A program made the position numbers and the translations under genes. Of a stretch of DNA of 64,000 nucleotides, positions 21,561 through 63,107 are shown piece by piece. Under the pieces are notes generated by a model, which saw nothing but the letters and a program-made list of their open reading frames with translations, was not told where the DNA came from and searched no databases. Source of the stretch: Nitrospirota bacterium (GTDB lineage: Bacteria > Nitrospirota > UBA9217); NCBI GenBank assembly GCA_035516175.1, contig DATJAO010000008.1, positions 1,604 through 65,603 on the forward strand, read 5' to 3'. The number at the start of each line of letters is the position of its first letter. Positions within the stretch are counted from its first letter, which is position 1.

Positions 21561-21694
21561 TGTTACATGCAAAACTTAGCATGAGCCCCGCGGGCTGCCG
21601 CTCCATCACCAGACAGGAGTCTAGTGTTTTATGCGGCTCAATAAGATTCATTTCAGAGTCAGTTGTTCCATGAGAAATACCCTTTTTTGTTGAA

Positions 21695-40518: not shown

Positions 40519-40521
40519 GGA

Positions 40522-43332: not shown

Positions 43333-44001
43333 TCATTTTTGAGTAATCTTCTTCTGGTCGATCTCTTCCTGGTACTGGCTTGTCAGTTGCTCAAGTTCCA
43401 CCTTCCGTACCTGCGTTAACGGCTCCTTCTCGAGGAGTACCGCGCCAAGACCCTTGTCCTTGTATTTTTTGACGAGTTCCTCGGCGATTTGGGCAAGCTC
43501 GGCATTGTTCGAGGAGCAGGTGCTGAGATCTCTAGTCGTCCTTTTCAGGTCCGCCTGAAAGGCCTGCTTCTCACTAGCAGTCTTTTTCAATTCACGGTCC
43601 AGGTCCTTGCCGTTCCTAAGCGCTTCCTGAAGCTCCTGCTTTGTTTTGGCCGTCGTTTCATCGGCTGCTTTGATCCTCATGTCCAGTTTCTGCACCTGCA
43701 CGGTGAGCGTTCTTACCCGGCCGCTCAGGGTTCCTGTTTTCTTCTGCTCGTTCATCAGCGAATCCTGCAGTTTATTCGCATCATCCCGGCATTTCTGCTC
43801 GAGCGTAATGGTGGCCTCGGCCTTTTCCTCGGACATCTTCTTCTGGATAAATGCTATCTTCTTGTCCTTCTCCTTGATCTTGTCCTGGCAGATCTTTTGT
43901 TCCTTATTCACCTGCATCTGTCCGACACCCAGTCCTATGAGCAGCCCAGCCGCCATGGCGACCGCTGGAAGGATCAACTTTTGTATCGCTGATATTTTCA
44001 T
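43333..44001 (-). CDS. Membrane-anchored periplasmic coiled-coil protein, function unknown
   Basis: ATG at 44001. TM segment LILPAVAMAAGLLIGLGVG, then about 190 aa of heptad-like, K/E/Q-rich sequence. Confidence 0.6.
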   Translation of the reverse strand: MKISAIQKLILPAVAMAAGLLIGLGVGQMQVNKEQKICQDKIKEKDKKIAFIQKKMSEEKAEATITLEQKCRDDANKLQDSLMNEQKKTGTLSGRVRTLTVQVQKLDMRIKAADETTAKTKQELQEALRNGKDLDRELKKTASEKQAFQADLKRTTRDLSTCSSNNAELAQIAEELVKKYKDKGLGAVLLEKEPLTQVRKVELEQLTSQYQEEIDQKKITQK

Positions 44002-44064
44002 GTTTCCCCCAGTGTCATTCGAGATCAACGAGATCCCCGGAACCAGGAATGTATTTTGAAAACG

Positions 44065-45780
44065 TTAGAATCGCGCGTTGACGTCCACTTGCAACACGTC
44101 AATTGCCAGCGGCGGTCCGCTGATCTCGTTCGCAGTCAGCCATCGAGCCCTAAGCCAATAATTCTTTGCCAGACCGAGATCTGCACCCAGGATCCATCCC
44201 TTTGCATTGGTTCCGCCAAGATGAAAGTCGGGATCCGTAAATGCATCTACAACAGCGTCGGCACCCAAGCGCTTATACGAGGCATACATTCTCCACTGCT
44301 TTTTTTCCTGGATGGTCGGATAGCCCACGGTGATCCCGAACTGCTCGCCTATGACGTCCTTCACTGTGTTAGGGTTCCCTGTCCGCTCAATGACATCGTT
44401 CAAGATGAAGCCGATATTCTTAACATAATCCCCGTTGAACACAACATGAACAGGATCCCAGAACCCGATATCGAGGATCCCAGTCAAGTTCACCTCCTCG
44501 TATTCCGGAGCCAAAGCAAGCACAGTAACGTTCGGATCAGAGCTGATATTGAAGAGCGTGTTGCCCTTTTGTTGGAACAAAGGTGCCGTCCAGTTCGTAT
44601 CACCAGGGTTGGACGGAGAATTCGGAATACCCGTGATGTTCTTGTAGTCGTAGTAGGCCGCGCCGATCTTCACGGAGACGCCCTTCTTGTCCGTGCTTTC
44701 AAGGCCCGTTTGCCCTCCCAAGAGCCACTTGTTATGCGCACTGAAGTCATATTGCTGCAGGGGGAATGCTCCGGCGGTCAAAAAGGGAGCCCAGGATTCC
44801 GTCGCCGTGTTCTTCACTTTCACGACCAACCCTTCGAAGTTCAGATCTGGGGCCCATACCAGATCGGAAGACAGCCATGGATTGGGCATGCGACCTCCGT
44901 ACAGAGTGAGGGCCTTCCAAGGTTGCCACTTGATATAGGCAAGATCGAACACGACACTGCCCTTATTCATGTAATTGCCCATGGTGTTGTTTTCCGACAC
45001 AGGGTTCGACGTGGTCCCCGTGGACAATCGAATGACCACTTCCACATGATCATCCACTTGTGCCTCTGCCCCAAAACGCACCCTGTACTTGAAACGGGAC
45101 GTGTTGTTCTGCGTATTCATGAGCTGAGTCGGGTTGGAAGGCGATGCCAGCAGGGCGTTGTTCGAATCAAAACGGTCAGCTTCATACCGCAGCCGGATGT
45201 CGCCGCCGAAACGGAGCCGCTTGTCCTTTTCCTTCAAGGCCCAGTTCACTTTCCAAATCTCCCGGTACAGTTCATCCATGACATCCTGTCTCACTTCCTC
45301 CTCAACCTTCTTGCGGACATCCTCAGTCACTTGAGCGGTTATCTGCTCAATTAACTCTCTCTCATGGGCCTTCTGGGCAGCGTGTGCCTCCTCAGTGTCG
45401 GTAGTCCCTGTCCGTTTGGTGCTCAGTACTGAAGACTGAACAGGCGCGGATGTGACTACCTCGGGCTGATGTGCCTCCTGAGCTGCGGCCGTCCCCTTCC
45501 CTCCGGTGTTCGGGGCCGCCGCCTGCGAGGGAGATGGTGCAGCCTTATCAGGTTTCTTCGCAGCCGTCTCCTTCGCCCGATCGACGGGTTCTGTTCGTGA
45601 CTGCAGGGGCGTCATGGCAACGTCGCTCTGGGACGGCGTGCTCTCGTGCCTGATCGTCACCGGCTTGGGACGTGCGCAGCCGATAGTTACAAGCAGCAAG
45701 AGTGCCGCAATGCCGCAGGTGATATGTTTTCCCATCCCCGCCAGGAATGTTGATACCAGAAGCCGAGCAATCTCTCTCAT
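44065..45780 (-). CDS. Lipidated outer-membrane porin-like beta-barrel with a long low-complexity linker and a coiled-coil segment
   Basis: Lipobox LLLLVTIGCA. About 130 aa of P/A/T/S/Q-rich linker. Helical ELIEQITAQVTEDVRKKVEEEVRQDVMDELYREIW. Then a beta-barrel-like region starting RFGGDIRLRYE and ending ...VDVNARF (C-terminal F). The start is ambiguous (45804, 45780 or 45735). Confidence 0.65.
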   Translation of the reverse strand: MREIARLLVSTFLAGMGKHITCGIAALLLLVTIGCARPKPVTIRHESTPSQSDVAMTPLQSRTEPVDRAKETAAKKPDKAAPSPSQAAAPNTGGKGTAAAQEAHQPEVVTSAPVQSSVLSTKRTGTTDTEEAHAAQKAHERELIEQITAQVTEDVRKKVEEEVRQDVMDELYREIWKVNWALKEKDKRLRFGGDIRLRYEADRFDSNNALLASPSNPTQLMNTQNNTSRFKYRVRFGAEAQVDDHVEVVIRLSTGTTSNPVSENNTMGNYMNKGSVVFDLAYIKWQPWKALTLYGGRMPNPWLSSDLVWAPDLNFEGLVVKVKNTATESWAPFLTAGAFPLQQYDFSAHNKWLLGGQTGLESTDKKGVSVKIGAAYYDYKNITGIPNSPSNPGDTNWTAPLFQQKGNTLFNISSDPNVTVLALAPEYEEVNLTGILDIGFWDPVHVVFNGDYVKNIGFILNDVIERTGNPNTVKDVIGEQFGITVGYPTIQEKKQWRMYASYKRLGADAVVDAFTDPDFHLGGTNAKGWILGADLGLAKNYWLRARWLTANEISGPPLAIDVLQVDVNARF

Positions 45781-45924
45781 ATATGTATTCCGGATTCCTC
45801 TCATATGATTGTGTGTGAACCGTTCATTACAATAACGGCAGTTGTTTATTTTTCTTCCGTCATTATCCGCATTGCTTCGATTCTATCCATCTCAAGACGC
45901 TCTTCTGGTTCCCTGCCGGCTGCA

Positions 45925-46635
45925 TCAGCCCTGAGACGTGATCCTGATGTTCATCGTCCGCGGCATGCCCTCGGGCGGCGGCTCGCTGATCCGGAGAGAA
46001 CGGAGAGAATCGATAATTGCCTCATCCATTCGGGTGTTTCCTGACGAACCGATGATCCGGTAATCAATGACCTTGCCTTCCATGTCAACGCTCACCCTGA
46101 CGACGGCCTGAAGCTTGCCCTTGGGGATCCCGCCTTCCTCATCCAGGTGCTTCATGACCTTCTTCCTGAGTTCCGTCGTCACGATCTGGGTATATCCGGT
46201 GAACTTTGACAGGAGAGAGAGACTCCCGGCCCCCGATCCACCGGCAAGAAGGCTTCTGCCCCCCTTCTTCCCGACAAGGCCGAAGTTATCGCTTCCTGCT
46301 CCGCCCTCGGCATCAACACCCAGACTGTCTCCCGCCGGCGTGTTGTCCGGGTTTTCGTTCTGGGGGGTCTGCGCCTCGTTCATTTCCGGATTGATGATTT
46401 CTTCTTTCTTCGGAATCTCTTTGACCTCCTCGGGTTCGGGAGGCTTTTCCTTGATCACCGGCGGCTTGAGCAGCGTGATAGTGGCTATCGTGTCCTTCTT
46501 TCGCGGTTCGCCCCCGGACATGAACGTTTTGACGATATACACGCCCGCGCCAACCAGAAGGACAAACACGGCGATGAGGATCCATGAAATCGATTGTTTT
46601 TCTTCATCGTCGGACATGTTTCGTATCCAAATCAC
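45925..46635 (-). CDS. tonB: TonB-family energy transducer
   Basis: N-terminal TM segment WILIAVFVLLVGAGVYIV, a Pro/Glu/Lys-rich spacer KPPVIKEKPPEPEEVKEIPKKEE, and a C-terminal TonB domain GKLQAVVRVSVDMEGKVIDYRIIGSSGNTRMDEAIIDSL. The start is uncertain (GTG 46635 or ATG 46617). Confidence 0.8.
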   Translation of the reverse strand: MIWIRNMSDDEEKQSISWILIAVFVLLVGAGVYIVKTFMSGGEPRKKDTIATITLLKPPVIKEKPPEPEEVKEIPKKEEIINPEMNEAQTPQNENPDNTPAGDSLGVDAEGGAGSDNFGLVGKKGGRSLLAGGSGAGSLSLLSKFTGYTQIVTTELRKKVMKHLDEEGGIPKGKLQAVVRVSVDMEGKVIDYRIIGSSGNTRMDEAIIDSLRSLRISEPPPEGMPRTMNIRITSQG

Positions 46636-46759
46636 AAACTACAAATTAGGAAAAAGGCAAGCACCAAACTGTAAATATCAAATAAATTCCAATAGACACA
46701 GGCCAGATTTTTGGTCGTTTGGTCATTAAAATTTAGAGCTTATTTGTGATTTGGTGCTT
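46629..46759. repeat. AT-rich spacer with crossing inverted repeats and TTTGGTS direct repeats between exbD and tonB
   Basis: AAATCACAAA (46629-46638) and AAGCACCAAA (46659-46668) are both complementary to the compact element TTTGTGATTTGGTGCTT (46743-46759). TTTGGTC-G-TTTGGTC lies at about 46710-46724. Confidence 0.5.
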
Positions 46760-46807
46760 ATTACTTGGAATTTCTTTGTTATTTGCCTGCTTATCTTATC
46801 TCCTGTT

Positions 46808-47224
46808 TCACTTCACCAGCTTCTGAGTCACCAGTCCGAGCTGAGTGATCTCAAGGCGTTGCAGGAGGTCCAGCACGTTGATGACGCTCTCGTAGGAGAT
46901 CTTCCTATCGCCCCGGATGACTACCGGAAAATTGGGGTCCGCGCCTTTGTACTGACGGAGCCTTATCTCCAGTTCTCCCAGGGTCACGGGAAAACTATCA
47001 AGATAGATCGTCCCGTCCCCGGTGATGGTGATTGCCCTGGTTGTGGATTTGACCTTGCTCGCGGCAGCGCTCGCTTTGGGAAGGTTGACACTGATCCCCT
47101 GCACGGACGCCGTCACGACGATCATGAACACCAGCAGGAGATTCCAGGCTAGGTCCAGCATGGGGACCACATTGATCTGGTCGTATATTTCATGGTCATC
47201 ATAGGGGTTTTTCCCGCGACGCAT
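46808..47224 (-). CDS. exbD: ExbD/TolR-family biopolymer transport protein
   Basis: INVVPMLDLAWNLLLVFMIV TM motif. The ATG at 47224 lies 1 nt after the upstream TAA (47226-47228). Confidence 0.85.
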   Translation of the reverse strand: MRRGKNPYDDHEIYDQINVVPMLDLAWNLLLVFMIVVTASVQGISVNLPKASAAASKVKSTTRAITITGDGTIYLDSFPVTLGELEIRLRQYKGADPNFPVVIRGDRKISYESVINVLDLLQRLEITQLGLVTQKLVK

Positions 47225-47225
47225 C

Positions 47226-49055
47226 TTATTTTTCCCCTTCCAGCTTGAGGATGAATCTCTCGATAAAGACATTCACATCGGCGTTCATGTCCTTGATACG
47301 GCTCGTGATGTAGCTGCTGGCAAACAATGAAGGGATCGCGACCAGGAGCCCAGCCAGCGTGCAGGAGAGGGCCGAGGCGACGCCCGGCGCTATGGCGGCC
47401 AGATTCGCTTCACCGCTCTCGGCCAGTCCGGCAAAAGTGTTCATGACGCCCCAGACCGTCCCGAGTAGCCCCAGGAACGGTCCGCCGGCGACGCTCATGT
47501 TCATAACGACCATGCCCGCGGACAGCTTTCTGCTTTCATACATGGCTTCTATTTCGACAGCCGCCTTGAAACCGTTCATGGCTTTCTCGGACAATCCTTT
47601 TCCTGCCTCGAAGGCTTCTCCCTTTTTACCGATATGAATCTTCAGTTCTTCGCATCCGGCCCGGTAGACCCGGTAGAGAGGCGATCCATGGAAGTCGTGC
47701 TCTTTTTCAACCAAGGAAAATGGATGCTCCTGATCGTGGAAGGACTGGGTAAAAGTCTGATTGACCTTTTTGGCACGGTTCAGCTTCGCGATCTTCTCCC
47801 GGAATATATACACTGACGAGAAGCCCATGATCACCAGCACCCCGATGATCAGCCAGCCATCGAGGGTAATGGTCCTTATGATGACCCTCATCAGATGGAT
47901 GGTGAGGGATTCGCCGCTACCGCTGCCCGATTCCTCCTCCAGATAGGACGTCAACATGCCGTCCTGTCCCTGGCTCTGGAATGCGGCCTTGATCCAGCCA
48001 GCGGTCCTGACGTTGTTCGACAACTGGATTTCATCAAGGTCTCCGATGAATGCATTGCCTCCTTTCGCCGCTCCGCCGATGACGATGTCCGCAGAGGGCG
48101 CCGGGATAGCCCTGTTCAATGTGCTCGTAGAGGCTTCCTGGCCGTCCAGATACAGGGTGACCCGTTTTTCCGGGTCCACTACCACGGCGAGCTGCTGCCA
48201 GCGATTCGGGGTCAAAGCCGCTGTTTTCGGCGTTTCTGTCACCGGTCCTTTACCGTACCCCAGGCTGCAGTATGCATTCCCGTCGTCGATGCCGATCACG
48301 ATTGACTGGATCCCGTCGTCCCAGGAGAACAGTTGAGCGCTGCCCGAGGGTTGGTTCAGACGGACCCAGGAGGAGAAGGTAAATCCCTTGGTAAAGTTGA
48401 CCGACGGCGATCTGGCGATTGTCATTTGTCCGCCGGTAGTTACGCTGAACTGCGCACCGCTCCCCAGAACGGATGGGATCCCCAGTTTGCCCGTAAAACC
48501 TGTTGCATGGTTGGCGTAAGCCGTCGCATCGCGCGGATTGCCATCCTTTTCCGCCAGGTGATACACGGCCACGTAGTTCAAATCGTATGTGCCGCCCGCG
48601 TCCTGGCCGTCCGGGGCGGCAGCATTGCCGTAATACATCCAGATCGAATCCTGGGCTGAGCCAGCGGAGATACGGGGGATCTTAACCCAGATCAGCGCCA
48701 TCTCTTCTGCGGGATCGAACTTTTCGATGTGATATTTCAGAGGAGTCTTGTCGTCGCTGGTCACAAACCGGATGTCCGATCCGTCCGCCTTGGCATTGGA
48801 GAAACTGAAATTTCCCGTATTGAGACGAATGGGCACCGGCACATCGTTCAGGCTCTCATTGATGTCGGCGGCCTTCGCTGAGGTATCGAACTGTATCTTC
48901 TTACGCTGCTGCCACTTCCCGTCCCACCAGGCATGTGCGTTCGTCGCAACCAGCAGACTGATCATGACCATCGCACCCCCGGCAAGGATCATTCTGGTGA
49001 TTGCATATCTCGATACAAATGTCGATCTCCTGTTCATAGACACGGTTGTTTTCAT
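47226..49055 (-). CDS. DUF2341 + LamG periplasmic domain fused to a MotA/TolQ/ExbB proton-channel domain
   Basis: Signal anchor, then a DUF2341-like segment WWDGKWQQRKKIQFDT...DVPVPIRL...GSDIRFVTSDDKTPLKYHIEKFD...ALIWVKIP...IWMYYGN. A LamG-like segment follows (FTFSSWVRL...LYLDG...FIGDLDEIQLS). The C-terminal channel is GGPFLGLLGTVWGVMNTFAGL...APGVASALSCTLAGLLVAIPSLF. Its ATG (49055-49053) overlaps the TpsA TGA (49054-49052). Confidence 0.85.
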   Translation of the reverse strand: MKTTVSMNRRSTFVSRYAITRMILAGGAMVMISLLVATNAHAWWDGKWQQRKKIQFDTSAKAADINESLNDVPVPIRLNTGNFSFSNAKADGSDIRFVTSDDKTPLKYHIEKFDPAEEMALIWVKIPRISAGSAQDSIWMYYGNAAAPDGQDAGGTYDLNYVAVYHLAEKDGNPRDATAYANHATGFTGKLGIPSVLGSGAQFSVTTGGQMTIARSPSVNFTKGFTFSSWVRLNQPSGSAQLFSWDDGIQSIVIGIDDGNAYCSLGYGKGPVTETPKTAALTPNRWQQLAVVVDPEKRVTLYLDGQEASTSTLNRAIPAPSADIVIGGAAKGGNAFIGDLDEIQLSNNVRTAGWIKAAFQSQGQDGMLTSYLEEESGSGSGESLTIHLMRVIIRTITLDGWLIIGVLVIMGFSSVYIFREKIAKLNRAKKVNQTFTQSFHDQEHPFSLVEKEHDFHGSPLYRVYRAGCEELKIHIGKKGEAFEAGKGLSEKAMNGFKAAVEIEAMYESRKLSAGMVVMNMSVAGGPFLGLLGTVWGVMNTFAGLAESGEANLAAIAPGVASALSCTLAGLLVAIPSLFASSYITSRIKDMNADVNVFIERFILKLEGEK

Positions 49056-52000
49056 TCCTCCTTCTTCTTGTCATCCTTATTGTTATCATCCTTATTGTTA
49101 TCATCCTCTTCAACAAAATCGATCACTTTTACTTCCAGCCACTTCGCGATGATGTCCTCGACCATCTGCGACGCCTGCACCTTTGCCGCGGTCAATCCGG
49201 ATGCATCCGCGGTCAGTTGGCTGGTCTGGGTTGCGCTTGTGGTGCCTGTGAGAGCCCCTAGCGAGGCGCTTCCCTCCGACGCCTGGGGCAAGCCAACGGA
49301 CCCCGCGGAAAAGTTTATGTTCGAGGCGTTGTTCACCTGAAGCGCAGCCAGGGTTATCTTTCCTCCCGCAATCCCCGCCTCGCCCGCATCGATGACCCCC
49401 GTGGGAGCAAAGAGATGGACGTTGCCCGGAATCGGTGCGTTCTCCCCGTAAGTCAATGCCCGGATGCCGCTGCCCACCGCGGGGGGAGTGAACACCTTCC
49501 TGTAAACGCCCGGCGCGCCCGGGACAGGGACGAGCTTCGGCGGAGAAGCACTGACTGCCGTTCTTGATCCTCTACCCGCGTTGATGCTTCCCTGGTCGCT
49601 CCAAACCGTTATGTCTCCGAAGGTAGCCTTGCCGCTTTGGATATCGTCGGCCGTAATACCGTTGTCGATCATGTCCTGCAGAGAAAAGAATGTCATAACA
49701 CGCGATTCCTGAACGTTGACGTCCTTGACCGTAAAAATATTGATCGCGCCGCCATTTGCGGTCGTAATGCCGCTCGTAGTATTTACTGCGGTTGCACTAG
49801 GCAGAGCGGTCTTGCCGAGGTTCAAGTCGCCATTGGCGATGATGGAAATGTCGGACGCCGCGTTTGAGGTGGATATCTGCGATGAGGTCATGTTGATGTC
49901 GCCGGGGCCGGACGGCTTTCCCAGGAGCGGTTCGATCGTATCCTGCCGGGTCGTTTGCAGCAACTGGTCTGCCTCATCCCGGCTGCCTTGCGCCATGAGT
50001 TTGGCGTATTGGTCGCCGGCATCTCGAATCGTCTTGAAGAAGGCCTCTATATCCGCCGACGACTGATCGAACCCGTATCCCGACAAAACAACAAGGCTGC
50101 TCCTGCCCGTAGCCCCTGTCGCCAATGCGGGATTATTACCATTACCGATCTCCTGAATTCCTCCTGAGAGCGAACCCAGATCTATGCTGCCGCCTGCCTG
50201 GATAAGGAAAGTGCCCGGCCCGCCCTGGATCAGACCGCCTTGTGCCGCTGAATCGGACGCCTTGACGTATTGCATAGAAATATCCCGTCCCGCCTGGATC
50301 ATGGAGATATCATCTGGGGCGATGTTCTGCCCCTCGTAGGTAATATTCGTGATGTCCCGGCCTGCCGTTACTTCGGCTTTCTTCGGCAACATGAGATTCA
50401 GCCCCGTGATATCCCTGTCCGCATGTATCTCTATGGCTGTTGGGTCACCCGTATGCAGCGGCCCGTCCTCGGGAACCGACATGGATTGGTCTATTGGATT
50501 GTAGATGCCGTGTCTGTTGACGACAGTACGTGATGCAATCCAACCACCTTTCTGGTCAGTGTCCCCGTAGACATAGAACAGTCCGTACCAGTTATTGGGC
50601 GCCATGTCCGATACGAGTATCCGCGCGGAGCGCTGGCCTCCACTGCCATTGTTAACCTGTCCTATCACATCGCCCCCGGCGTGCAGGATGAGGTTCCCAT
50701 CGGAAGCCGAGGCGAGCGTAAAATCATTCAGGAGCAAAATGTCTCCCCCTGCAACAACATTCACATTCGCAGGCAGGACACGCTCGTAAATCTGGGACGC
50801 AACCGGGTTCGCATAAAAGGGCGATCTGCCGGCAAGCGTTATATCAGTTCCCGCCTTCAGGCTTATTGTCGTCTCAGGTGTGTAGGATAAATACACAAAG
50901 TTCGATGCCCTGTACTGATCGATTTCATCGCTTGCCAGAGAGGGGTTCAGTATTGCGCCGATCTGCATCTCTCCCTGGGCGGTCACATTCATCTTGCTGT
51001 TAAAAAGCTCAATCTGCGCCCGGTCATTTTCTAAAGAGGCGGGATTATAAGCCCCAAAGTTTCCCTGAGCATGGATTTCCGCCCGCCCGGCCTCGTCAGT
51101 TGACCCATGATTCAGGAACCTGCCATTGATATCCCCGCCGGAATAGATCGTAAGGTCTCCTGCGCCAAATGTCCCTGCCTGGGCAAGGAAGTCGCCTCCG
51201 GTGCGGACGGAAAGGTTTCCACCGCCCATGGTTGACAGGCCGGCAGTACCATACAAGTAGTCAGCTGAAAAAAGCCCGTACGTGGAGGGATGTGAATTAA
51301 TAGTGACATCTATCGGTGAAAAATAATCCCAGGCACCGCCGTCTGCGGTAACCCACATCCCGGAGCTGTTCAGCTTGCCCGCGTTTCCGCCCACGCTCAG
51401 CGTGACATTTCCGCCGTTGTCGTACCTCCAGTAATAGGTACCATTGAGATCTGATTGTTGTATTGCGGTTTTGTTGAAAGGCTGTCCCGTTGCCGGGTCT
51501 ATTGGCGTCGGATCCAGAGGACTCGTTCCCACGGCATCTGTGGATGTGAGCTGTCCTGTAGTGCGGATTGCGCCGGCACCGGGATTGTTGTAGTCACCTC
51601 CGGCAAGGAGGTTCAGGTTCCGGCCCACGCTTATGTCGATGTCGCCCGTAGCTGTTTGAATAGCGCCGGCCACGCTGAGGTCACGCCCCACGTTTCCCCG
51701 AATCGACCCGCTGAAGGACGCCAGATTATAGTACATCGCGGGACTTATCATATAGTTGGGGTAAACGTAAGCAATCTGCGGTCCCGTTCCTATAAACGTA
51801 TCTCCACCTGAGGCAAAAAGAATAGGAGCGCTCTCGGTGTAAACCACTGTGTTATTAGCGATCGTCAGAGCCCCGGTGCCCATACTGTTCACTGCCAGGG
51901 GATCGGCGCTCGAGGTGTCAGCTCCCGCTGCCAGGTTGAAGCCCCAGGAATTTCGTCCCGAAGGCAGAGAGGTGACGGGGTTGTTCCCGGATGCCGCATA

Positions 52001-58000: not shown

Positions 58001-59674
58001 ATATTGGATGGCGCCGCCTGAAAAATCGAGCGAGGCCCCTTGCTTGATGTCGATACCGCCGTTGGCCGCGGTTATGCTGATGTTTCCGGTTTGGGGCTGA
58101 TAGACCCAATAGTCTGGCACTTGGCCCGTTGGATCATGCACCAAGTACTTTCTTATATCCCCGCCAATGAGCCGCTCCTGCGCCGTCTTGTCTTGTGTCA
58201 GCAGGGTTTGTGAGATATCCCCTATGGCGGACCCTGAAGCGAGTGTGGTCGTAATTTTCGCCCCCTGCAGTACTCCGCCCTTCTGATCGTATGCGTCCCT
58301 GAGTTCGACGCTGTTTAGTGCAAAATTCGAGAGGACCGCCACCGGGAGGTCCGCCTTGACGCCGCTCACATCGATGCCGCTGGTCGATTCCATGGTGACC
58401 TGGTTGGCGGCCATTAGCGTAACATTCCCTGCCGGCGCAATAATCTTCCCCCCGAGATCGATTTGCAATGCGGCAGTGTTGCTGATCAAACCTCCTATAA
58501 ACACATTCGGCTGGATATCAAAGGTATCGCTCACCGTGCGGGGCTGGCCTGTCTGCGGGTCCAGCGAGTCGTCGACGGGCAGTTCGACACTGCTGTCCGC
58601 GCCTGTGGTGATTTTGTTCGCGGCCCTCAGTTCCACCTGGCCTTTATTGTTTTGAAAGGCAGTCACGGAGCGGATGACGCCCCATTGTTCGACGTTGTTG
58701 CCGTACATGCCGACCAAGCCGCCGTCGGCGTGCAATATCCCACCTTCCTGGTTCACGGCCTTGCCGAACGTCGCATCAGTGCTCTTGGGCGCGTTAATGA
58801 AGTCATCGTTGATCAAGACATAATAGCCCGATCTCGAAAGATCGTTTGAACCGGGCGACATCAATGTCACGTCCGTGCCTGCTGCAAGACCGATCTGCCC
58901 TGCGGGCGCATTAATGGTGCCGAAGTTTTCAACGCGGGGAGCCATGAGAAAAACGTATCCGCCGTTTGCAGCGTTGATCTCCCCGAAATTCGAGAGCGCG
59001 GCTAACGTGTCCGGGCTGCTCAGGTTCTGGTAGTTTTCCAGTATGAAGTGGAGGATATTGTTCAGAAAGTCGCTATCATGAATGTTGAGCGCAGAGGCTA
59101 TCAGGCTGTTCACGTTCACCGTCGAACCGGGCCCGAACAGGATCCCGTTCTGGTTGATGAGGTAGATCTTGCCGTCCGCCGACAGTTTTCCGTAGATCTG
59201 GCTGGGATTGGCGTCCCAGATGCGGTTGAGAGCCGCCCAGCTTGCATTTCCCTGCTGATTGAAATAGACCGACGAGTTGCTGCCGATATTGAATGTTTGC
59301 CAGTTTATGATCGCGTTCTGCTGGTTCTGATACACCGTGACCTGGCCGCTATCGGCATTGCCGCTGGTCTCGATGCCTTGATTTCCCTTGCTGGTATCGA
59401 GTCCCGTGTTGTTGCCCGGTAACACGACCGGGACTTCATTGGCCGGTACAGCGGGAACCAAAGCCTTGTTGTAAAAGCCGGGGATGGCCAGTGGTGCATT
59501 GCTCGGTGCCCCGGGAACAGTCGCCGCAGGTGCAGCCATGACCGGCGGTCGCACGGCAACCGATCCCCCAAATCCGGGGATAGAAACGACGGACCCGGCA
59601 AGTGCTGATTGGGGGAACAGAATGAGCGCGCAGCACAACAGGCGAAGCAGGGTCTGAACAATGTCGGTCTTCAT
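49052..59674 (-). CDS. Giant (3540-aa) filamentous-haemagglutinin-like TpsA exoprotein
   Basis: Signal peptide. TPS domain: VTVYQNQQNAIINWQTFNIGSNSSVYFNQ...ALNRIWDANPSQIYGKLSADGKIYLINQNGILFGPGSTVNV. Thousands of residues of G/N/S/T/A-rich beta-helix-type repeats. Acidic/lysine tail EEDDNNKDDNNKDDKKKEE. Encoded next to a TpsB gene. Confidence 0.9.
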   Translation of the reverse strand: MKTDIVQTLLRLLCCALILFPQSALAGSVVSIPGFGGSVAVRPPVMAAPAATVPGAPSNAPLAIPGFYNKALVPAVPANEVPVVLPGNNTGLDTSKGNQGIETSGNADSGQVTVYQNQQNAIINWQTFNIGSNSSVYFNQQGNASWAALNRIWDANPSQIYGKLSADGKIYLINQNGILFGPGSTVNVNSLIASALNIHDSDFLNNILHFILENYQNLSSPDTLAALSNFGEINAANGGYVFLMAPRVENFGTINAPAGQIGLAAGTDVTLMSPGSNDLSRSGYYVLINDDFINAPKSTDATFGKAVNQEGGILHADGGLVGMYGNNVEQWGVIRSVTAFQNNKGQVELRAANKITTGADSSVELPVDDSLDPQTGQPRTVSDTFDIQPNVFIGGLISNTAALQIDLGGKIIAPAGNVTLMAANQVTMESTSGIDVSGVKADLPVAVLSNFALNSVELRDAYDQKGGVLQGAKITTTLASGSAIGDISQTLLTQDKTAQERLIGGDIRKYLVHDPTGQVPDYWVYQPQTGNISITAANGGIDIKQGASLDFSGGAIQYQAGLVNTTKLLSGTKIYDISNAPEDIQYNAILGNYEKIYNRFGIQESYTGLYYGGASPVMTYVNGYTTGGDAGSLSLKAPMIVLNGQLNGSVTRGTYQNALTMQSNYSTANDYNEALMLSKTRGLEMPQAGSLSIMGTSNIAVVSETDTQTDHATGIPLPAGQTTLVSAKILNDAHLGAVNLTADLTISTAVDAALTLQPGGSFTASTRLIDHEGDITVPGGTITLFAVQNSTGERDSSGNLNPNPVSLPNGLSERIILGKKSVLDTSGERIDNSQTGTNGNDVLGSGRVNGGTIVIKDNTDQGAGVFIQTGAIVDVSGGYTINQKGNITGGNAGSLSIQGANIQLDGDIRGYALADPNGNLSGGQIQLAAPNITVAPASSIPGNYTWNDFDPLSADPSRSQPPADMKGVLYLPDDLLKSTGFTSITLNSVNDVIIDKDSKFGPSPYRLNNPLNSGSGTRATIDGQVLTGDSVPGKPDLIQLDDAQLYMAGPSKFVASAGVPFGGSSGLFTNNLRSISDPNAPKLSVSDGAVVQTTPGTTGSSSSISLSGPNVTVYGELDSRAGNITITATGGNLLIGDSASILANGYNRPNPSSTPNGNPINYQPINGGTVSLIATPILNAVNTGNLTIAATALIDVSGSDMVQNSVLSDGKISTYETAGSPGSVSLTYGGVPDLKGAIVANRAQLNGLSGISGGTLAMTYTYPDPSSIAKANEMSISDYIGYFLSTGFDDLTFRSNATLNFDGGGISYVIPRKLTLDAPNIIGAGNTVTLSSPWIVLTNSSKMSPPVETQPVMPAAGSLTLAGGWTDPSGALHSGFIDVIGDIQLDGFRDVTLQTDRDIRLSQVLYDNNCVGGDCSKATAVYPGTLRTTGNLVLDAARLYPGAFYSNTTRSYGNNIYPSIYSDYTVHANGKVTLQHTVGNTDNAVDTPIYSAGGNLTIEGLGGIELKKDVTVAAPMGTITLSAPGKRIYLDDGSVLTTAGSPDFDVNYGAIDSNNLWLVQDKANPNVQSGSASLFTQDSLPQKSITMNADEVIAREGSVIDVSGGGSVFAYTFQPGVQGSVDPLTKSGRYIVFKADSFPMPGTTVYLQGGGGLSAGLYTLLPLDAKDPQNARFAFMPGAYIIEAQSTTSLPGPGALSIDGYPLTVGFTAIADTSIKSTRPQVYSVRTAAEVIATEGSYVKPDSFVSGNAGDIIIAGNTTVLDGKLNAAALSGYQGGKISLAATDVFVQSSAASPLPADFQFGTPLAAAGITQGTMNVSADSLSGKGFSEVDLGNGNTNSVTVRSGAALDADVLTLSANQAVTVESGAKLGVVQTTTGMSGTDRISLSTPGELAIASGASVYASQSITLDVNDVKDISGELKSDSGSLTLKSTVIFFGGDNGKAPTDVGLYLTGTLWNRFSTFSDISLISKNDIQFRTDFTGGSALSAGKSLTLNAAQITGVNSGGASVTLTAPTVNLTNTGTSSAAVTTANAGAFTVNADQINIGTGDVLFGGFSTIGLNSKNDLTFIGMGSLTTGNADLLIGAARITTASTTKTANNSNGTTTTAVTATQFTVYTGANYLNDQNNPSPTGSITITNSGGTPGTTSSPGGTLEFQGRSIDQGGVIRVDGGTVRLSATGPGQADGVTLRSGSQILAQGTADAPGGQVFLNSINGGIVMEGAAVDANGATVKPASLIDVSADSQGDAGTISLQAPLGGVLINGDLKGTAKNTVDSQGDIVRIGQGGSFILHTDQINDLAGLNSRLASGGFTESLDLWARTGNIDIASGQILQARHIKLTVDDTSTSNGQINIAGQIIATDGGSVELYAANNLTIQSGGSVNATNAAAGSSGGSVLLSTAYAGTDPLQGWINVNGTIDVSGGAGGTGGTIYLRAQRNVTDVKINLGGTLQGAASVYAEAVKRYDYSVPSLLTSTQFQTWLNEAASYDAANTAVGRLQGAAPAGSSSFHLLPGIEVVNSGGDITIDAPIEMSLLGADTNPGVLSLRAKGNLNINNNLTDYPAYAASGNNPVTSLPSGRNSWGFNLAAGADTSSADPLAVNSMGTGALTIANNTVVYTESAPILFASGGDTFIGTGPQIAYVYPNYMISPAMYYNLASFSGSIRGNVGRDLSVAGAIQTATGDIDISVGRNLNLLAGGDYNNPGAGAIRTTGQLTSTDAVGTSPLDPTPIDPATGQPFNKTAIQQSDLNGTYYWRYDNGGNVTLSVGGNAGKLNSSGMWVTADGGAWDYFSPIDVTINSHPSTYGLFSADYLYGTAGLSTMGGGNLSVRTGGDFLAQAGTFGAGDLTIYSGGDINGRFLNHGSTDEAGRAEIHAQGNFGAYNPASLENDRAQIELFNSKMNVTAQGEMQIGAILNPSLASDEIDQYRASNFVYLSYTPETTISLKAGTDITLAGRSPFYANPVASQIYERVLPANVNVVAGGDILLLNDFTLASASDGNLILHAGGDVIGQVNNGSGGQRSARILVSDMAPNNWYGLFYVYGDTDQKGGWIASRTVVNRHGIYNPIDQSMSVPEDGPLHTGDPTAIEIHADRDITGLNLMLPKKAEVTAGRDITNITYEGQNIAPDDISMIQAGRDISMQYVKASDSAAQGGLIQGGPGTFLIQAGGSIDLGSLSGGIQEIGNGNNPALATGATGRSSLVVLSGYGFDQSSADIEAFFKTIRDAGDQYAKLMAQGSRDEADQLLQTTRQDTIEPLLGKPSGPGDINMTSSQISTSNAASDISIIANGDLNLGKTALPSATAVNTTSGITTANGGAINIFTVKDVNVQESRVMTFFSLQDMIDNGITADDIQSGKATFGDITVWSDQGSINAGRGSRTAVSASPPKLVPVPGAPGVYRKVFTPPAVGSGIRALTYGENAPIPGNVHLFAPTGVIDAGEAGIAGGKITLAALQVNNASNINFSAGSVGLPQASEGSASLGALTGTTSATQTSQLTADASGLTAAKVQASQMVEDIIAKWLEVKVIDFVEEDDNNKDDNNKDDKKKEE
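49071..49108. repeat. 15-bp tandem repeat (2.5 copies) encoding the DDNNK repeats of the TpsA C-terminal tail
   Basis: TCATCCTTATTGTTA at 49071-49085 and again at 49086-49100, then a partial copy TCATCCTC. Confidence 0.85.
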
Positions 59675-59756
59675 GGTTGCCTCCCGTACACCAGACGATG
59701 CCTTTCCTTCTCTTAATTGTGGATACCATTAACAGGACAATGTCACTCTTTTTTGA

Positions 59757-59787
59757 GGGATATCAACAAATATCTTATGATGTCAAG
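59757..59787 (-). promoter_or_regulatory. Candidate sigma70-type promoter in the tpsB-tpsA gap
   Basis: Minus strand reads CTTGACA-(15-17 nt)-TGATATCC. The -35 TTGACA is perfect (59786-59781) and the -10 is weak. About 85 nt upstream of the TpsA ATG. Confidence 0.25.
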
Positions 59788-59841
59788 AGGACGATATCAG
59801 CCCCGGGAATCGCTAACTGGGTCAGCAAAGAACATCCCCGC

Positions 59842-61449
59842 TCAGAACAGGGCTCTTACTTTGAAATAGGACCTCTGGTCATGCTTTTCGGTCTGGTCCG
59901 TGGCGCGCAGCGCCACGGACCAGTCCAGTTCATACTCCAGATTCTTCGCTATCGAACCTCGTATTCCGGCGCCTGACCCCGACAATCTAATGCTATTATC
60001 CTGGCCGGGCAACGCCTCTTTGATCGTCAGCGACGCGAAGTCATAGAAGATAAAAGGGCTTATTTGAACCTTCTTTCCCATCGCGGTCCGTCCAAGAGGG
60101 TCAGGAAAGGAAAGTTCAAACATCCCATGCAGCGCATTATCGCCTAGTACCTCGCTTTCCTTATACCCCCGTACGCTTTCCATCCCGCCCGCAGTGTACT
60201 GCTCGCTGTTGATAAGCGGCTGATCGGCTACCTGGCCGTCCACTTTCAAAGATAGGTTCATGCCCCAAGTCAGTTTCTGCATGCGCAGCGCGCTTGCTGT
60301 GAAGACGAGGTAGTTCGCAGATGCCTTGTAGCGGCTGGTCTCGAACTTCATTTCTTGATTGCTGGATGACCGGAAGTTCATGTTCAATCCTGCGCCAAAC
60401 TGGCTCATCCCACCCCATTTATCCGGTAAAGAAGAGCTGTAGGAAAACGAAAACGGTGTATATTGAACCGGGATATCTTCCGTTGTCGTCTGTGCAATTT
60501 CTGTTGTAGTCGGTGTTGTCTGGTGTATGCTTTTGTAATCGAGACCCAGAGTAAGCGTATGAGAATACAATTGGTACTCGGGCAGCATCACAACATAGCG
60601 CGTGCCGAAGATATCCCCTTTTCCCACTATTTGGAAGCCTTCGCCGAATGCGGTATTGCTATTCGACCATATGCCGTAAAACGCCCACTGGTCGTCCTTT
60701 TGCCACGGCGCAGGCAACGTATAGGAGGCGCTCAACGCCTGCACCTGATCCGCATTCTGCGGCGATATCTGGTACTGAAAGGAAAGGGAATGCTCACGCT
60801 GCCAGAGATTGTCATAGTGGATTGCCGCATTGAGCCGCAACGGCTCCGTGTCAGGGCTCGCCCGGTTGTTCAGTTCCAGAAACCCGTGCAGGGGAAGATG
60901 ATCCTCCACCCTGAGTTCAACATCGATAGTCCCCACTTCCTTGCCTGGCGACATCACTGGTTCCACCTTTAAATCCTGGCTTCTGTTCAGCTGCGAAAGC
61001 TCCTGTTGGACCTGAGGCAGGTAGAGGATGGCACCAGGCGTGAAGGACGGCAGGTCCTTCAACATCTTTTCCCTGGTAAAATACCGGTTGCCAGTGACCT
61101 TCACCCTGCCGATCCGGCTCTCGATCACCTGCAGTTTGACGATGCCGTCTTGCAGGGTCTGTTCCGGGATGTTCACCATCACGGCCGGATACCCGGCATC
61201 GTGGTATTTCTTTTCCAGCGAATCGCGCGCCTTTTCCACATCCGCCGCGGTCCTGTTGGAACCGGTGTACAGGATGACCGCGGTGCGAATCTGGTCATCG
61301 GTGAACAGAGTGTTGCCGGTCACCTCGAAAGCCTTGATCGCGAAGCCTGCTTCGCCGGTTTCTTCGGCGATACCCGGTCGGGACAGGATAGCCGTGCATA
61401 CCATGACCATGACCATTACTCGAATGAGAAGCCGACCAATCGTTTTCAC
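59842..61449 (-). CDS. ShlB/FhaC/HecB-family TpsB outer-membrane transporter (POTRA plus beta-barrel)
   Basis: Signal peptide, POTRA start FAIKAFEVTGNTLFTDDQI, a barrel, and a C-terminal ...YFKVRALF. The GTG start overlaps the upstream TGA (GTGA at 61446-61449). Confidence 0.9.
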   Translation of the reverse strand: MKTIGRLLIRVMVMVMVCTAILSRPGIAEETGEAGFAIKAFEVTGNTLFTDDQIRTAVILYTGSNRTAADVEKARDSLEKKYHDAGYPAVMVNIPEQTLQDGIVKLQVIESRIGRVKVTGNRYFTREKMLKDLPSFTPGAILYLPQVQQELSQLNRSQDLKVEPVMSPGKEVGTIDVELRVEDHLPLHGFLELNNRASPDTEPLRLNAAIHYDNLWQREHSLSFQYQISPQNADQVQALSASYTLPAPWQKDDQWAFYGIWSNSNTAFGEGFQIVGKGDIFGTRYVVMLPEYQLYSHTLTLGLDYKSIHQTTPTTTEIAQTTTEDIPVQYTPFSFSYSSSLPDKWGGMSQFGAGLNMNFRSSSNQEMKFETSRYKASANYLVFTASALRMQKLTWGMNLSLKVDGQVADQPLINSEQYTAGGMESVRGYKESEVLGDNALHGMFELSFPDPLGRTAMGKKVQISPFIFYDFASLTIKEALPGQDNSIRLSGSGAGIRGSIAKNLEYELDWSVALRATDQTEKHDQRSYFKVRALF

Positions 61450-62543
61450 CTAGTGGTAGTCTCGCTCGTCCGGAGATTAGCATCTGCAATTTTTTCCACG
61501 GTCACATCGCAGAGCAGCGTTTCGCCTCCAAAAGCGTTTCCAAAGTCCACTGTGAAGCTCTTATCGTCAACGTAGGAAATCCGCCCGACCATGCCTGTCG
61601 CGCGGACGAGCGCGCCTTTGCGCGCATCGATGTCCAGTATGTAATTATCGCCCTCTTCCCTGATGCGGCCCGGACCGAAAAGGGTCTCTTTGGTCCCCGG
61701 TGTGACGAAAATCTTGATCGTTACGTCCTTGTCCGAAATCGACTCCACTTTGCCAGGAAAATCGGTATCGTAAGTATATGCCTGTCCGATCTCAGGAGTT
61801 TGGTTCGTCAGGTACTCGTAGGTGTGCTTTTGCATTACGACCACTTTGGGTTGCGTGCGGACCCGATTCAGACGCGCGAGATATTTCTCGGGAACAGATG
61901 GCACGGCATCCTCGGACTTGATCTCTGCCGTGCGCCTCTCGCCCTCCTTCATGCCGACAATCGCCTGCCCGAGTTGATTCTGGATTTCGTCTTCGAAGGA
62001 ACGCTCGCTGAAAGGCGTCAGCTCCGGCCGCTTCGCCTCCGCAGGGCTTATTGCGGAGAGTGACAGGGGACCAGACTCCAACCGCTGCACATAAATATTC
62101 GATTTAGGCAGGTTATCCGCGACATGATCAGTTGCGGCCGCAACATCACCAGACGGGAGCCGGCACAAATAACGAATGGACGCCGTATCTCCGGGCTGTA
62201 TCAGTCTTTCCGTGGCTGCCGCGGGAGCGTGATCTGCCTGCAGCATCTGATGCGTTCCCGTGGCGGCGCATCCCGCAATAGTCCAGACACTAACGAAGAT
62301 AGGAAGCAGCCACTGGAGCATTATCGGCATATCATTCTTATCCGGTAACTCCTGCTGAATATCCTTTTCCCTGCAGACTTGGATCAAGGCCTTATCCGCA
62401 ACAACGACGTGCGTGAGCTCGAACTCCTCCGATTTTTCGATCCGGCCGAGACTTCCCTGGCTGAAATTGATCTTGATGTAGCCGTTGAACTTCCCTTCCA
62501 TAAGCATTTTGATCGTTTCGCTCAGTCTTTTCAGCTTTTCCAT
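61446..62543 (-). CDS. Bitopic protein: N-terminal DUF2292/YezD-like domain, TM/lipobox segment, periplasmic SlyD/FKBP-like PPIase domains
   Basis: ATG at 62543 after GAGGTG. N-terminus MEKLKRLSETIKMLMEGKFNGYIKINFSQGSLGRIEKSEEFE. Hydrophobic segment LQWLLPIFVSVWTIAGCAATG. FKBP-like GDTASIRYLCRLPSGDV, MKEGERRTAEI and VDFGNAFGGETLLCDVTVEKI (cf. the SlyD DxNHPLAGxxLxFxVxV pattern). Confidence 0.6.
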   Translation of the reverse strand: MEKLKRLSETIKMLMEGKFNGYIKINFSQGSLGRIEKSEEFELTHVVVADKALIQVCREKDIQQELPDKNDMPIMLQWLLPIFVSVWTIAGCAATGTHQMLQADHAPAAATERLIQPGDTASIRYLCRLPSGDVAAATDHVADNLPKSNIYVQRLESGPLSLSAISPAEAKRPELTPFSERSFEDEIQNQLGQAIVGMKEGERRTAEIKSEDAVPSVPEKYLARLNRVRTQPKVVVMQKHTYEYLTNQTPEIGQAYTYDTDFPGKVESISDKDVTIKIFVTPGTKETLFGPGRIREEGDNYILDIDARKGALVRATGMVGRISYVDDKSFTVDFGNAFGGETLLCDVTVEKIADANLRTSETTTR

Positions 62544-63107
62544 GGGCACCTCGAGGTTGGGAACAACAGTTGAATTATCCTTAAATCGGAATTTGGACGG
62601 TGATGAGCTATAGGTATATGCGTATAAATCTAAAGTATTTGAAATAAAAGAGGATTCATCTTGCTATTGAATCTTTTAATAATTCAACGAAATCTTTCTT
62701 AATGCTGTATCTGTGTTTATCCATTTGTTCTGCGTCCTAACTGCTTTTTTGTTTTGAATTATCAGTATTTGGTAGCAGGTTATCATCTTGGGAAGCTCAA
62801 AAGAGGACTTAAGAATTGCGGGCTTCCCGGTCGTTGATGCGCAATGCATCAATTCAGCAAAGTACCCTTTGTTTAGGTTTTTTAATTTATCAATTTATTG
62901 TTACGGCCGTATTACAATTAGAAGAAGATTTGATGAAAACGAGTCTTTTTTCTTATTTAAACACCTAAGTTGCAGTCCCCAGGCCGGGCACATACCGATA
63001 AAAGGATTTTAACGGTATTCATTTCGTCTAATACAACCTGCGCCTGGCAGCTTTCAACTTTCGTCATCGTTACGCCCTGGTTCTAACTGCATCATCCATC
63101 TGGATAT

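Follow-up and report, generated by a model that had tools for sequence, protein, structure and literature searches.

A giant two-partner secretion exoprotein encoded next to a LamG-bearing Tol/Ton-type motor in Nitrospirota and other bacterial lineages

Results

A 64,000-nucleotide stretch of a Nitrospirota genome (NCBI GenBank assembly GCA_035516175.1, contig DATJAO010000008.1, positions 1,604 to 65,603; henceforth termed the window, to whose full length all coordinates refer) encodes, side by side, a giant exoprotein of the two-partner secretion (TPS) type and the components of a proton motor of the Tol/Ton kind. Reading the open reading frames (ORFs) of the window against Pfam and NCBIfam reveals a module of nine genes, all on the minus strand, in the order lipoprotein, tpsB, tpsA, a DUF2341/LamG-ExbB fusion, ExbD, a TonB-like protein, a Porin_5 outer-membrane protein, a coiled-coil protein, and a peptidyl-prolyl isomerase (PPIase). 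A first-pass annotation of this DNA, made from the sequence alone, had described the row from tpsB to the coiled-coil gene in just this way, and both the ORFs and the Pfam matches bear it out. The boundary it drew at 44065, however, falls short of the module, which runs on to 42304 and takes in the coiled-coil gene as well as a gene for a protein with SurA_N and PpiC domains.

The secreted pair carries the hallmarks of type Vb secretion, i.e., a TPS domain in TpsA and an adjoining Omp85-family TpsB with POTRA domain and ShlB-type barrel. The tpsA gene (49052..59674) encodes a predicted beta-helical exoprotein of 3540 aa with a TPS domain and DUF3739 (also NCBIfam TIGR01901, E 2.7e-21). Its TPS secretion domain (residues 105-350, 58625..59362; PF05860, E 1.5e-24), the sequence of which contains YLINQNGILFGPG, carries NQNGI, a variant of the NPNGI motif. 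The 535-aa TpsB (59842..61449) matches POTRA_2 over residues 36-110 (E 1.8e-15) and ShlB over residues 173-498 (E 2.3e-22), and its matches in the PDB are CdiB and FhaC. A 28-residue signal peptide leads directly into POTRA1, with neither H1 plug helix nor linker in between; in the alignment with CdiB 6WIM, residue 30 pairs with residue 48, and the TpsB from a related Stutzerimonas locus described below is likewise without the helix.

The best conserved part of TpsA is its last ~300 aa, which are 33-66% identical across phyla, Stutzerimonas included, in an alignment of C-termini. This C-terminal module has a DUF3739 core (residues 3353-3463, 49286..49618; PF12545, E 9.4e-31) and closes with the terminal strand motif WLEVKVIDF (residues 3512-3520, 49115..49141), behind which a 20-residue acidic/lysine tail follows. 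Among 151 TpsA C-termini compared, 118 contain a motif of the form [WFY][LIVFM][DE..]V[KR..]V[IL]xF, at a median distance of 13 residues from the C-terminus, with an acidic tail after it; the consensus reads WLDVKVIDF. The EVKVID segment of the window protein is similar to EVRIVID at the N-terminus of E. coli TolB, the sequence of which was confirmed. In TolB, this segment binds TolA by strand addition. The TpsB without an H1 plug helix and the TpsA ending in a WLDVKVIDF strand with acidic tail, both read from sequence, are new here.

Two PPIase-type chaperone candidates, one parvulin/SurA-like and one weakly FKBP-like, flank the module and recall the parvulin Par27 of Bordetella, which assists filamentous hemagglutinin (FHA). 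The last gene (42304..43317) encodes a periplasmic chaperone/PPIase of the parvulin type (Rotamase, E 1.5e-27; SurA_N_3, E 5e-14). At the other end, a 367-aa ORF (61446..62549), the stop of which overlaps the tpsB start as GTGA, probably encodes a lipoprotein: the likely true start, MPIMLQW..., lies at about residue 74 of the ORF and gives a lipobox, IAGC. The first-pass annotation called this protein an FKBP. A weak similarity of its C-terminal part to SlyD and FKBP_C is indeed present, but the NCBIfam SlyD match (PRK15095, E 8e-5) is partial and below cut-off, FKBP_C scores E 0.083, and no Pfam family matches at E<0.01. Homologues of the gene stand upstream of tpsB in four related loci (L008, L013, L065, L075).

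The gene that follows tpsA (47226..49055) encodes a 609-aa fusion protein built of a signal peptide, a periplasmic part of ~340 aa comprising DUF2341 (E 4e-20) and a LamG beta-sandwich (Laminin_G_3, E 1.2e-22), a Gly/Ser linker, and a three-helix channel subunit of the TolQ/ExbB type (MotA_ExbB, E 1.8e-25). AlphaFold2, which was used for single-chain models of this protein and of Porin_5, predicts the same build (pLDDT 91.7): behind the signal helix come a beta-sandwich in two parts (residues 50-376), the short linker, and the helical bundle. In Foldseek searches, the bundle superposes on TolQ with TM-scores of 0.81-0.87, and the sandwich resembles lectin-like jelly rolls, namely the receptor-binding domains (Hc) of clostridial neurotoxins and trans-sialidase. 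The DUF2341-LamG unit is also repeated in tandem, 3-22 times, in giant proteins 1500-7900 aa long outside the window (P0121-P0268), e.g., in the 7264-aa P0121, where 22 DUF2341-LamG stretches were matched.

The ATG of the fusion gene overlaps the tpsA stop as ATGA (49052-49055), an overlap on which the first-pass annotation had built a case for translational coupling. The four letters are present in the sequence; as a start site, they are doubtful. Three in-frame candidates (ATG 49055, GTG 49043, ATG 49037) lie 1, 13, and 19 nt from the sole Shine-Dalgarno-like site, GGAGG at 49061-49057. The called orthologues P0003 and P0017 start at the equivalent of Met7, i.e., at the third candidate (MDRR... 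against MNRR... in the window), and close relatives have GGAGGA after the tpsA stop and, 18-24 nt further on, a GTG/ATG pair, with no overlap. The overlapping ATG 49055 is probably neither the real nor a conserved start of the fusion gene, the starts of orthologues being 14-25 nt downstream.

The 138-aa ExbD/TolR-type subunit (46808..47224; Pfam ExbD, E 6e-26) begins with an ATG 1 nt past the TAA of the fusion gene, a spacing that the first-pass annotation had given correctly. It keeps the transmembrane Asp (VPMLDLAW) that we take to be the equivalent of E. coli ExbD D25, and with the MotA_ExbB match of the fusion it makes up an ExbB/ExbD-type proton channel. The TonB/TolA-like protein (45925..46635; TonB_2, E 2e-10; TIGR01352, E 6e-9; TonB_C at its cut-off, E 3.6e-5), for which an internal ATG at 46617 is the likelier start, has an N-terminal transmembrane helix, a short Pro/Lys/Glu-rich spacer that reads KPPVIKEKPPEPEEVKEIPKKEE, a conserved Gly-rich motif, and a C-terminal TonB fold; its sequence has no significant match in the PDB. 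Within NCBIfam, the fusion protein scores 119.6 bits against tolQ (below the cut-off of 221) and 79.5 against exbB, ExbD scores 84.9 bits against tolR (below the cut-off of 127) and 65.2 against ExbD_2, and the TonB-like protein matches tolA_full with E 0.0018. By these scores the motor stands nearer to TolQR than to ExbBD, which is a second new point.

The Porin_5 protein (44065..45804; PF16930, E 2e-126), with a likelier start at an internal ATG (45735) and a lipobox, VTIGC, is modelled as ~100 disordered N-terminal residues, a helix of ~59 residues (115-173), and 16 long strands (pLDDT 75.5). The top Foldseek matches of this model are the structures of OmpM1 (8BYT, 8BYM, 8BYS; E 1.6e-15, TM-scores 0.72-0.75), ahead of general porins and AlgE. 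The long stalk helix before the barrel is as in OmpM-type proteins; no SLH domain was found, Porin_5 being the only Pfam match and the N-terminus disordered in the model. The protein thus models as an OmpM-like stalked 16-strand barrel, which is also new here. An identical sequence is on record from a Nitrospirota metagenome-assembled genome. The N-terminal tip varies by clade: in the clade of the window the lipobox is followed by PKPVTIxHE, and in other clades a plain signal peptide is combined with 1-4 copies of ALVdLLKxKGVISxEEA. This tandem motif of ~20 residues (ALVdLLKxKGVISxEEAxxF), which stands before the stalk helix in most orthologues outside the window clade (L006-L079), is reminiscent of short helical domains of the SHOCT type and has been lost in the window protein; some long orthologues carry a further Pfam family, PF27542. 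We considered PEVVTSAPV as a TonB box of the porin and dropped it, as a 60-sequence alignment places an unrelated repeat motif there and the position is not conserved; the clade-specific PKPVTIxHE is a weak lead of the same kind. The 231-aa coiled-coil protein (43333..44028), membrane-anchored or secreted, has a weak coiled-coil match as its sole Pfam hit and a conserved C-terminal region of ~70 aa.

Among 1.8 billion representative proteins searched, full-length fusion proteins of ~600 aa fall into about a hundred 50%-identity clusters. The matches listed show the fusion to be common in Pseudomonas fluorescens, P. chlororaphis, P. koreensis, P. putida, P. syringae, P. otitidis, P. tohonis, and P. 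solani and in Achromobacter. One of these proteins, WP_312341246.1 of Stutzerimonas nitrititolerans, led to a contig that encodes a TpsA of 4231 aa (TPS domain plus DUF3739), a DUF772 gene, a small ORF, TpsB, the DUF2341-LamG-ExbB fusion, ExbD, a 247-aa TonB-like protein, Porin_5, a 216-aa protein, YbjN, a PpiC rotamase, a 161-aa protein, and LysR. This order agrees gene for gene with the published PA0690-PA0701 locus of P. aeruginosa, which comprises pdtA, phdA, pdtB, exbB2, exbD2, tonB4, PA0696 (a "putative outer membrane porin"), PA0697, PA0698 (YbjN family), PA0699 (a PpiC-type PPIase), and a LysR regulator (PMC7035377). The comparison with pseudomonads runs through Stutzerimonas and other Pseudomonas proteins rather than P. 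aeruginosa sequences; judging by these relatives, PA0693 itself probably carries DUF2341 as well.

All eight core proteins of the window have BLASTP homologues in the Stutzerimonas locus: TpsB (32% identity, E 1.7e-91), the TpsA C-terminus (32%, E 4.7e-25), the periplasmic (32%, E 1.7e-59) and membrane (31%, E 5e-29) parts of the fusion protein, ExbD (46%, E 3.9e-36), the TonB-like protein against its TonB4-like counterpart (26%, E 2.7e-4), Porin_5 (30%, E 1e-67), the C-terminus of the coiled-coil protein against the 216-aa protein (24%, E 5e-7), and the PPIase against the rotamase (27%, E 3e-14). Both loci share the giant TpsA with its DUF3739 C-terminus, TpsB, the exbB2-exbD2-tonB4-type genes with the DUF2341-LamG-ExbB fusion adjoining the TPS genes, and, downstream, a PA0696-type porin, a PA0697-type small helical protein, and a PA0699-type PpiC PPIase. 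They differ in order, with tpsB-tpsA before the motor in the window and tpsA, a transposase-like gene, tpsB, and then the motor in pseudomonads. The window has no YbjN gene and no LysR gene, and no sigma or anti-sigma gene was found among the window ORFs scanned, i.e., there is no counterpart to the VreA-VreI-VreR-type (PUMA3) extracytoplasmic function (ECF) sigma module. It adds the FKBP-like lipoprotein, its porin is lipidated, and its module abuts an exosortase-type exopolysaccharide locus. On this sequence evidence, the module of the window is the Nitrospirota version of a widespread "Pdt-type" two-partner secretion module.

The first-pass annotation had anticipated a new system type, a claim that does not stand, since the same gene set is published as PA0690-PA0699 and an association of TPS, exbBD, and PA0696 genes across bacteria was reported in 2009 (PMC2729926). 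The exbB2-exbD2-tonB4 motor has been called "still uncharacterized" (PMC7035377), and a TPS review says nothing of the association and restates that type V secretion proceeds without external energy (PMC5422565). Our literature search found no work tying exbB2 or tonB4 to PdtA secretion and no later work on the TPS-motor association; a paper on Caulobacter YjbI/ExbD proved unrelated, as it concerns antibiotic uptake.

To assess how firmly TPS and motor genes are linked, we anchored surveys on either side of the junction. In the first, an alignment of fusion proteins was run against one genome per GTDB species, which gave 403 relatives, and the best 80 loci were fetched with 10-kb flanks, in which the window proteins were searched against six-frame ORFs. 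Upstream of the fusion stood the TpsA C-terminus in 67 loci, TpsB in 5, and neither in 1, with too little sequence in the remaining 7, so that TpsA or TpsB lies directly upstream in 72 of the 73 informative loci. Downstream, where many contigs end early, the 80 loci showed ExbD in 78, the TonB-like protein in 74, Porin_5 in 64, the coiled-coil protein in 41, and the PPIase in 34. The hosts belong to Nitrospirota, Thermodesulfovibrionia, Smithella, Syntrophobacteraceae, Syntrophorhabdales, Geobacteraceae, Desulfuromonadales, Desulfobacterales, and NC10. The second survey started from an alignment of the last 340 TpsA residues against metagenome contigs (519 relatives, 80 fetched). Of the 62 loci that extend at least 2.5 kb further downstream, about 53 have the motor adjoining the TpsA C-terminus: the fusion follows directly in 46 and in 3 more that were added (L112, in which the fusion gene was confirmed by eye, and L124 and L153, counted from the same ExbD-TonB-Porin_5 pattern), tpsB and then the fusion follow in 2, and a lipoprotein gene plus tpsB stand at the locus edge in 2. 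About 9 loci are orphans.

In total, the arrangement recurs in ~130 independent loci, a linkage far beyond what chance would produce. The juxtaposition that the first-pass annotation had noticed in one genome is common among relatives, which decisively answers the objection set out in that annotation, namely that such motor genes might seldom adjoin TPS genes. Linkage is kept, in both anchoring directions and despite rearranged gene order, in Nitrospirota, Thermodesulfobacteriota (Desulfobacterota), NC10, and Gamma- and Betaproteobacteria. More distant relatives of the fusion (34-39% identity) again stand in TPS/Porin_5 clusters in two loci, L166 and L167. The former (34% identity, 5930-21794) has the order small TonB_C protein, ECF sigma factor, FecR-like anti-sigma factor, TpsB, fusion, ExbD, TonB-like protein, Porin_5, TpsA, i.e., a PUMA3-like regulatory module is joined to the cluster and tpsA comes last; a fragment of a TonB-dependent receptor lies 8 kb upstream. 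In a third distant locus, L165, a set of a 36%-identical fusion, ExbD, and a TonB_2 protein (10001-13019) stands behind a GGDEF/EAL gene.

Translational coupling and stoichiometric co-expression of fiber and motor, which the first-pass annotation had read from the ATGA overlap and the gene order, are not supported; coupling as a conserved feature was rejected on the basis of the junctions and the orthologue start sites. Junctions between tpsA and the fusion gene in the first survey span -20 nt to >1 kb, the overlap is not conserved, and tpsB rather than tpsA precedes the motor in five loci of that survey and in pseudomonads. A TonB-dependent transporter, the usual client of such a motor, was missing from the window according to the same annotation, and in agreement none of the 14 window ORFs of at least 500 aa has a Plug or TonB_dep_Rec domain in Pfam. 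Neither family is among the Pfam families matched by at least 3 of 51 large non-module ORFs in the flanks of 160 loci, and the one TonB-dependent transporter seen is that 8 kb from L166; a conserved receptor partner was not found in the related loci either. Given the common TPS linkage and the lack of a conserved TonB-dependent receptor as neighbor, a functional link between motor and fiber is very likely.

Discussion

With regard to the secreted pair, the module resembles classical two-partner systems such as FhaB/FhaC, CdiA/CdiB, and ShlA/ShlB in its NPNG-type TPS domain, its ShlB-type barrel with POTRA, and the adjacency of the two genes. The FhaB prodomain stays periplasmic, and the conserved C-terminal region of the window TpsA could do likewise. 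The differences lie in the DUF3739 and WLDVKVIDF terminus of TpsA, in the TpsB without the H1 plug helix and linker that FhaC and CdiB possess, and in the motor, as classical systems need none and are regarded as energy-independent (PMC5422565). The motor itself combines traits of two systems. Its ExbB-type channel, the transmembrane Asp of ExbD, and a TonB fold behind a Pro-rich spacer are shared with Ton, from which it departs by the lack of a receptor with plug and 22 strands, by the 340-aa periplasmic domain of its ExbB, and by hidden Markov model scores that favor TolQ/TolR. With Tol-Pal it shares the TolQ-like fold and scores, a TolA/TonB-like coupler, the relative order of an outer-membrane lipoprotein and a coiled-coil protein, and the likeness of the EVKVID strand to the TolA box EVRIVID of TolB. 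However, Pfam and NCBIfam show neither a TolB beta-propeller nor a Pal/OmpA peptidoglycan-binding domain in any module gene, the outer-membrane partner is a 16-strand porin, and the module is tied to a secreted fiber rather than to cell division. The porin model shares with OmpM1 of Veillonella parvula a 16-strand barrel behind a long N-terminal helix that would reach into the periplasm, and differs by the missing SLH domain, a lipidated and disordered N-terminal tip, and a sequence identity of only 16%. The Agl-Glt gliding and Nfs machineries and the Oar-dependent secretion of PopC in Myxococcus are cases in which motors of the TolQR/ExbBD type and TonB-like proteins power surface machines or protein export; to our knowledge, they contain no TPS pair, DUF2341-LamG fusion, or Porin_5.

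On balance, we think that the motor serves the fiber, a reading we hold to be somewhat better than an even bet, and that it would do so by acting on the conserved TpsA C-terminus. According to this model, the giant TpsA would cross the inner membrane by Sec, would be kept unfolded by the dedicated PPIase chaperones, and would thread N-terminus first through the H1-less TpsB, with its conserved C-terminal module remaining on or close to the periplasmic side. At that site, the C-domain of the TonB/TolA-like protein might engage the terminal strand of TpsA by beta-strand augmentation, the five LamG domains of an ExbB pentamer might engage it, or both. The proton motive force would then do work on the C-terminal end, most likely by holding or tensioning it until controlled release or completed export, and the stalked porin would provide the outer-membrane anchor point of the complex. 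As Tol/Ton motors pull inward, we favor such proton motive force-dependent holding or tensioning, with release or completion of export, over a mechanism that pushes the chain out. A more specific version, in which the TonB/TolA-like protein grips WLDVKVIDF as TolA grips the TolB N-terminus and, together with the LamG ring and the porin, tensions the fiber, releases it, or completes its export, is drawn by analogy and is tentative, being rather doubtful in this exact form.

Several points weigh against a motor that acts on the fiber. Since TonB and TolA motors pull inward, an outward push of a fiber is not an obvious task for them, and the likeness of EVKVID to EVRIVID, which we treat as a lead, is a short-motif similarity that could be due to chance. 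About 9 of the 62 TpsA loci have no motor nearby, and L165 has neither TPS nor Porin_5 genes within 10 kb of its motor set, which shows that motors of this family also occur apart from TPS genes. Two-partner secretion has been reconstituted with no external energy supplied (PMC5422565), and the only phenotype reported for tonB4 (PA0695) and PA0696 mutants is unchanged virulence in zebrafish (PMC2729926). The orphan tpsA loci may be explained by genomes that hold several tpsA copies and a single motor cluster, as in Rhodopseudomonas and Janthinobacterium (PMC2729926).

Among other explanations, nutrient capture of the Hxu kind, in which TpsA binds a substrate and the motor energizes its uptake through Porin_5 as a new, plug-less TonB-dependent importer, appears unlikely to us. 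Import is what ExbB-ExbD-TonB normally powers, and Porin_5, the only other outer-membrane protein of the module, has an N-terminal extension into the periplasm; yet it shows neither a plug nor a conserved TonB box, its N-terminal region differs between clades, and its model is similar to the tethering porin OmpM1 and to general porins. HxuABC offers a precedent for a TPS pair genetically linked to a TonB-dependent transport step (PMC5422565, PMC4873976), and phosphate starvation induces the Pseudomonas locus, which is part of the VreI/PUMA3 and PhoB regulon and adjoins a secreted alkaline phosphatase system (PMC2729926, PMC7035377). In contrast, the module has no conserved periplasmic binding protein or inner-membrane transporter, and in Nitrospirota it borders exopolysaccharide rather than nutrient genes. 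Uptake would also leave unexplained why co-occurrence is tightest with the TpsA C-terminal module.

We regard as similarly improbable that the motor, the TolA-like protein, the stalked porin lipoprotein, and the coiled-coil protein form a tether of the Tol-Pal kind, which would stabilize the outer membrane at the site of fiber or exopolysaccharide production and not act on TpsA. The tol-pal operon has the order tolQ-tolR-tolA-(tolB)-pal-cpoB, which the succession of Q-like, R-like, and A-like proteins, outer-membrane lipoprotein, and coiled-coil protein parallels. The higher scores of the fusion protein and ExbD against TolQ and TolR models and the fold match to TolQ point the same way, as does the nearest structural match of the porin, a porin for outer-membrane attachment. 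However, such a tether would lack TolB and any peptidoglycan-binding domain of the OmpA/Pal or SLH type, and a general role in the envelope needs no strict linkage to one TpsA subfamily with its C-terminal motif.

Domains of the LamG/concanavalin type often bind carbohydrates, and the lectin-like Foldseek matches of the fusion protein raise the possibility that the LamG-bearing motor serves the export, anchoring, or modification of exopolysaccharide, with the TPS fiber merely a co-regulated adhesin of the matrix. An UpxY-type antiterminator and then a large exosortase/exopolysaccharide locus come after the module both in the window and in its relatives among Nitrospirota; polysaccharide genes also follow L167, and the Stutzerimonas locus has a Wzz gene nearby. 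Many loci of Geobacteraceae, Syntrophobacteraceae, and Pseudomonas have no adjacent exopolysaccharide genes, however, and the constant partners of the motor are TpsA/TpsB and Porin_5 and not any exopolysaccharide gene, which leaves this explanation very improbable. Finally, that TPS pair and motor are uncoupled and share a neighborhood by chance or for regulatory reasons is hardly credible, as the synteny counts across phyla in both anchoring directions come close to refuting it, the unconserved ATGA overlap, the intergenic gaps of >1 kb in some lineages, and the uninformative promoter and terminator scans notwithstanding.

Type V secretion, TPS included, is the textbook example of proteins crossing the outer membrane with no source of energy, and the Pdt-type subfamily is the best natural place to test for an exception. 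In this subfamily, which includes the virulence-associated PdtA of an opportunistic pathogen, at least five major lineages link a giant TpsA to a proton motor of its own. If the terminal strand of TpsA were indeed gripped by the TonB/TolA-like protein, this would be the first energized two-partner secretion and a third mode of work for Tol/Ton motors. The parts that such a test would address, namely the TpsA C-terminal module with its terminal strand, the LamG-ExbB fusion, the OmpM-like porin, and the H1-less TpsB, are available in genetically tractable Pseudomonas, and the answer would assign a function to DUF2341, DUF3739, Porin_5, and the exbB2-exbD2-tonB4 genes of P. aeruginosa.

Neighboring genes and further observations

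On the same strand as the module, an exosortase-type exopolysaccharide locus occupies 2860-41658. It encodes an EpsH exosortase fused to DUF3485 (11148-12746), Wzz/GNVR plus a ParA-like kinase (2860-5398), a 667-aa TPR protein (7308-9311), a heparinase II/III-like protein (14650-16599), an 836-aa beta-helix protein (18758-21268), an asparagine synthase (21695-23590), and a LamG plus GHL10 protein (27791-29593), all on the minus strand, together with many glycosyltransferases, a flippase, and a Wzy. Another minus-strand ORF (39806-40558), directly adjoined by a gene for a galE-like epimerase, has a 250-aa product that resembles at its end the C-terminal sugar-isomerase (SIS) half of GlmS and seems unrelated to it over the first ~60 residues. 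Related loci have full SIS/GATase genes in their flanks, and the ORF may be a truncated or frameshifted glmS.

Between the module and the exopolysaccharide genes lies a minus-strand gene for a NusG-like antiterminator of the UpxY family (41740-42243; NF033644, E 2.6e-36). It keeps this position in L001-L003, L085-L087, L093, L094, L099, L110, and L133; in L013 it stands upstream of the lipoprotein and tpsB genes instead. The kept position suggests that fiber module and exopolysaccharide locus form a conserved larger unit in this Nitrospirota clade.

A scan for promoters and terminators across 41.5-61.4 kb gave counts equal to the shuffled expectation and is thus uninformative on operon structure, and an Rfam scan of 41-64 kb returned no RNA family. 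PADLOC found no match to a defense system among the six module proteins scanned, on which basis we rejected a reading as an anti-phage defense motor such as Zorya ZorAB. The otherwise tightly packed row is interrupted between ExbD and the TonB-like gene by an AT-rich non-coding spacer of ~170-190 nt (46636-46807), in which neither an Rfam match nor a convincing promoter or terminator was found.

In the flanks of related loci, a TPR-repeat protein of ~620 aa recurs a few kb downstream of the module (17 of 51 large flanking ORFs), e.g., in L011, L021, L026, L028, L033, L034, and L036 and in L164 (18109-19983), several of these proteins having TPR_Slam or BTAD-type matches; it may be a further accessory component in loci of the Deltaproteobacteria type. 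In the window itself, a gene for a DsbC-type disulfide isomerase (DsbC_N plus a thioredoxin-like domain; 63154-63942, minus strand) lies ~600-800 nt upstream of the first module gene, on the same strand and across a spacer of lower GC content.

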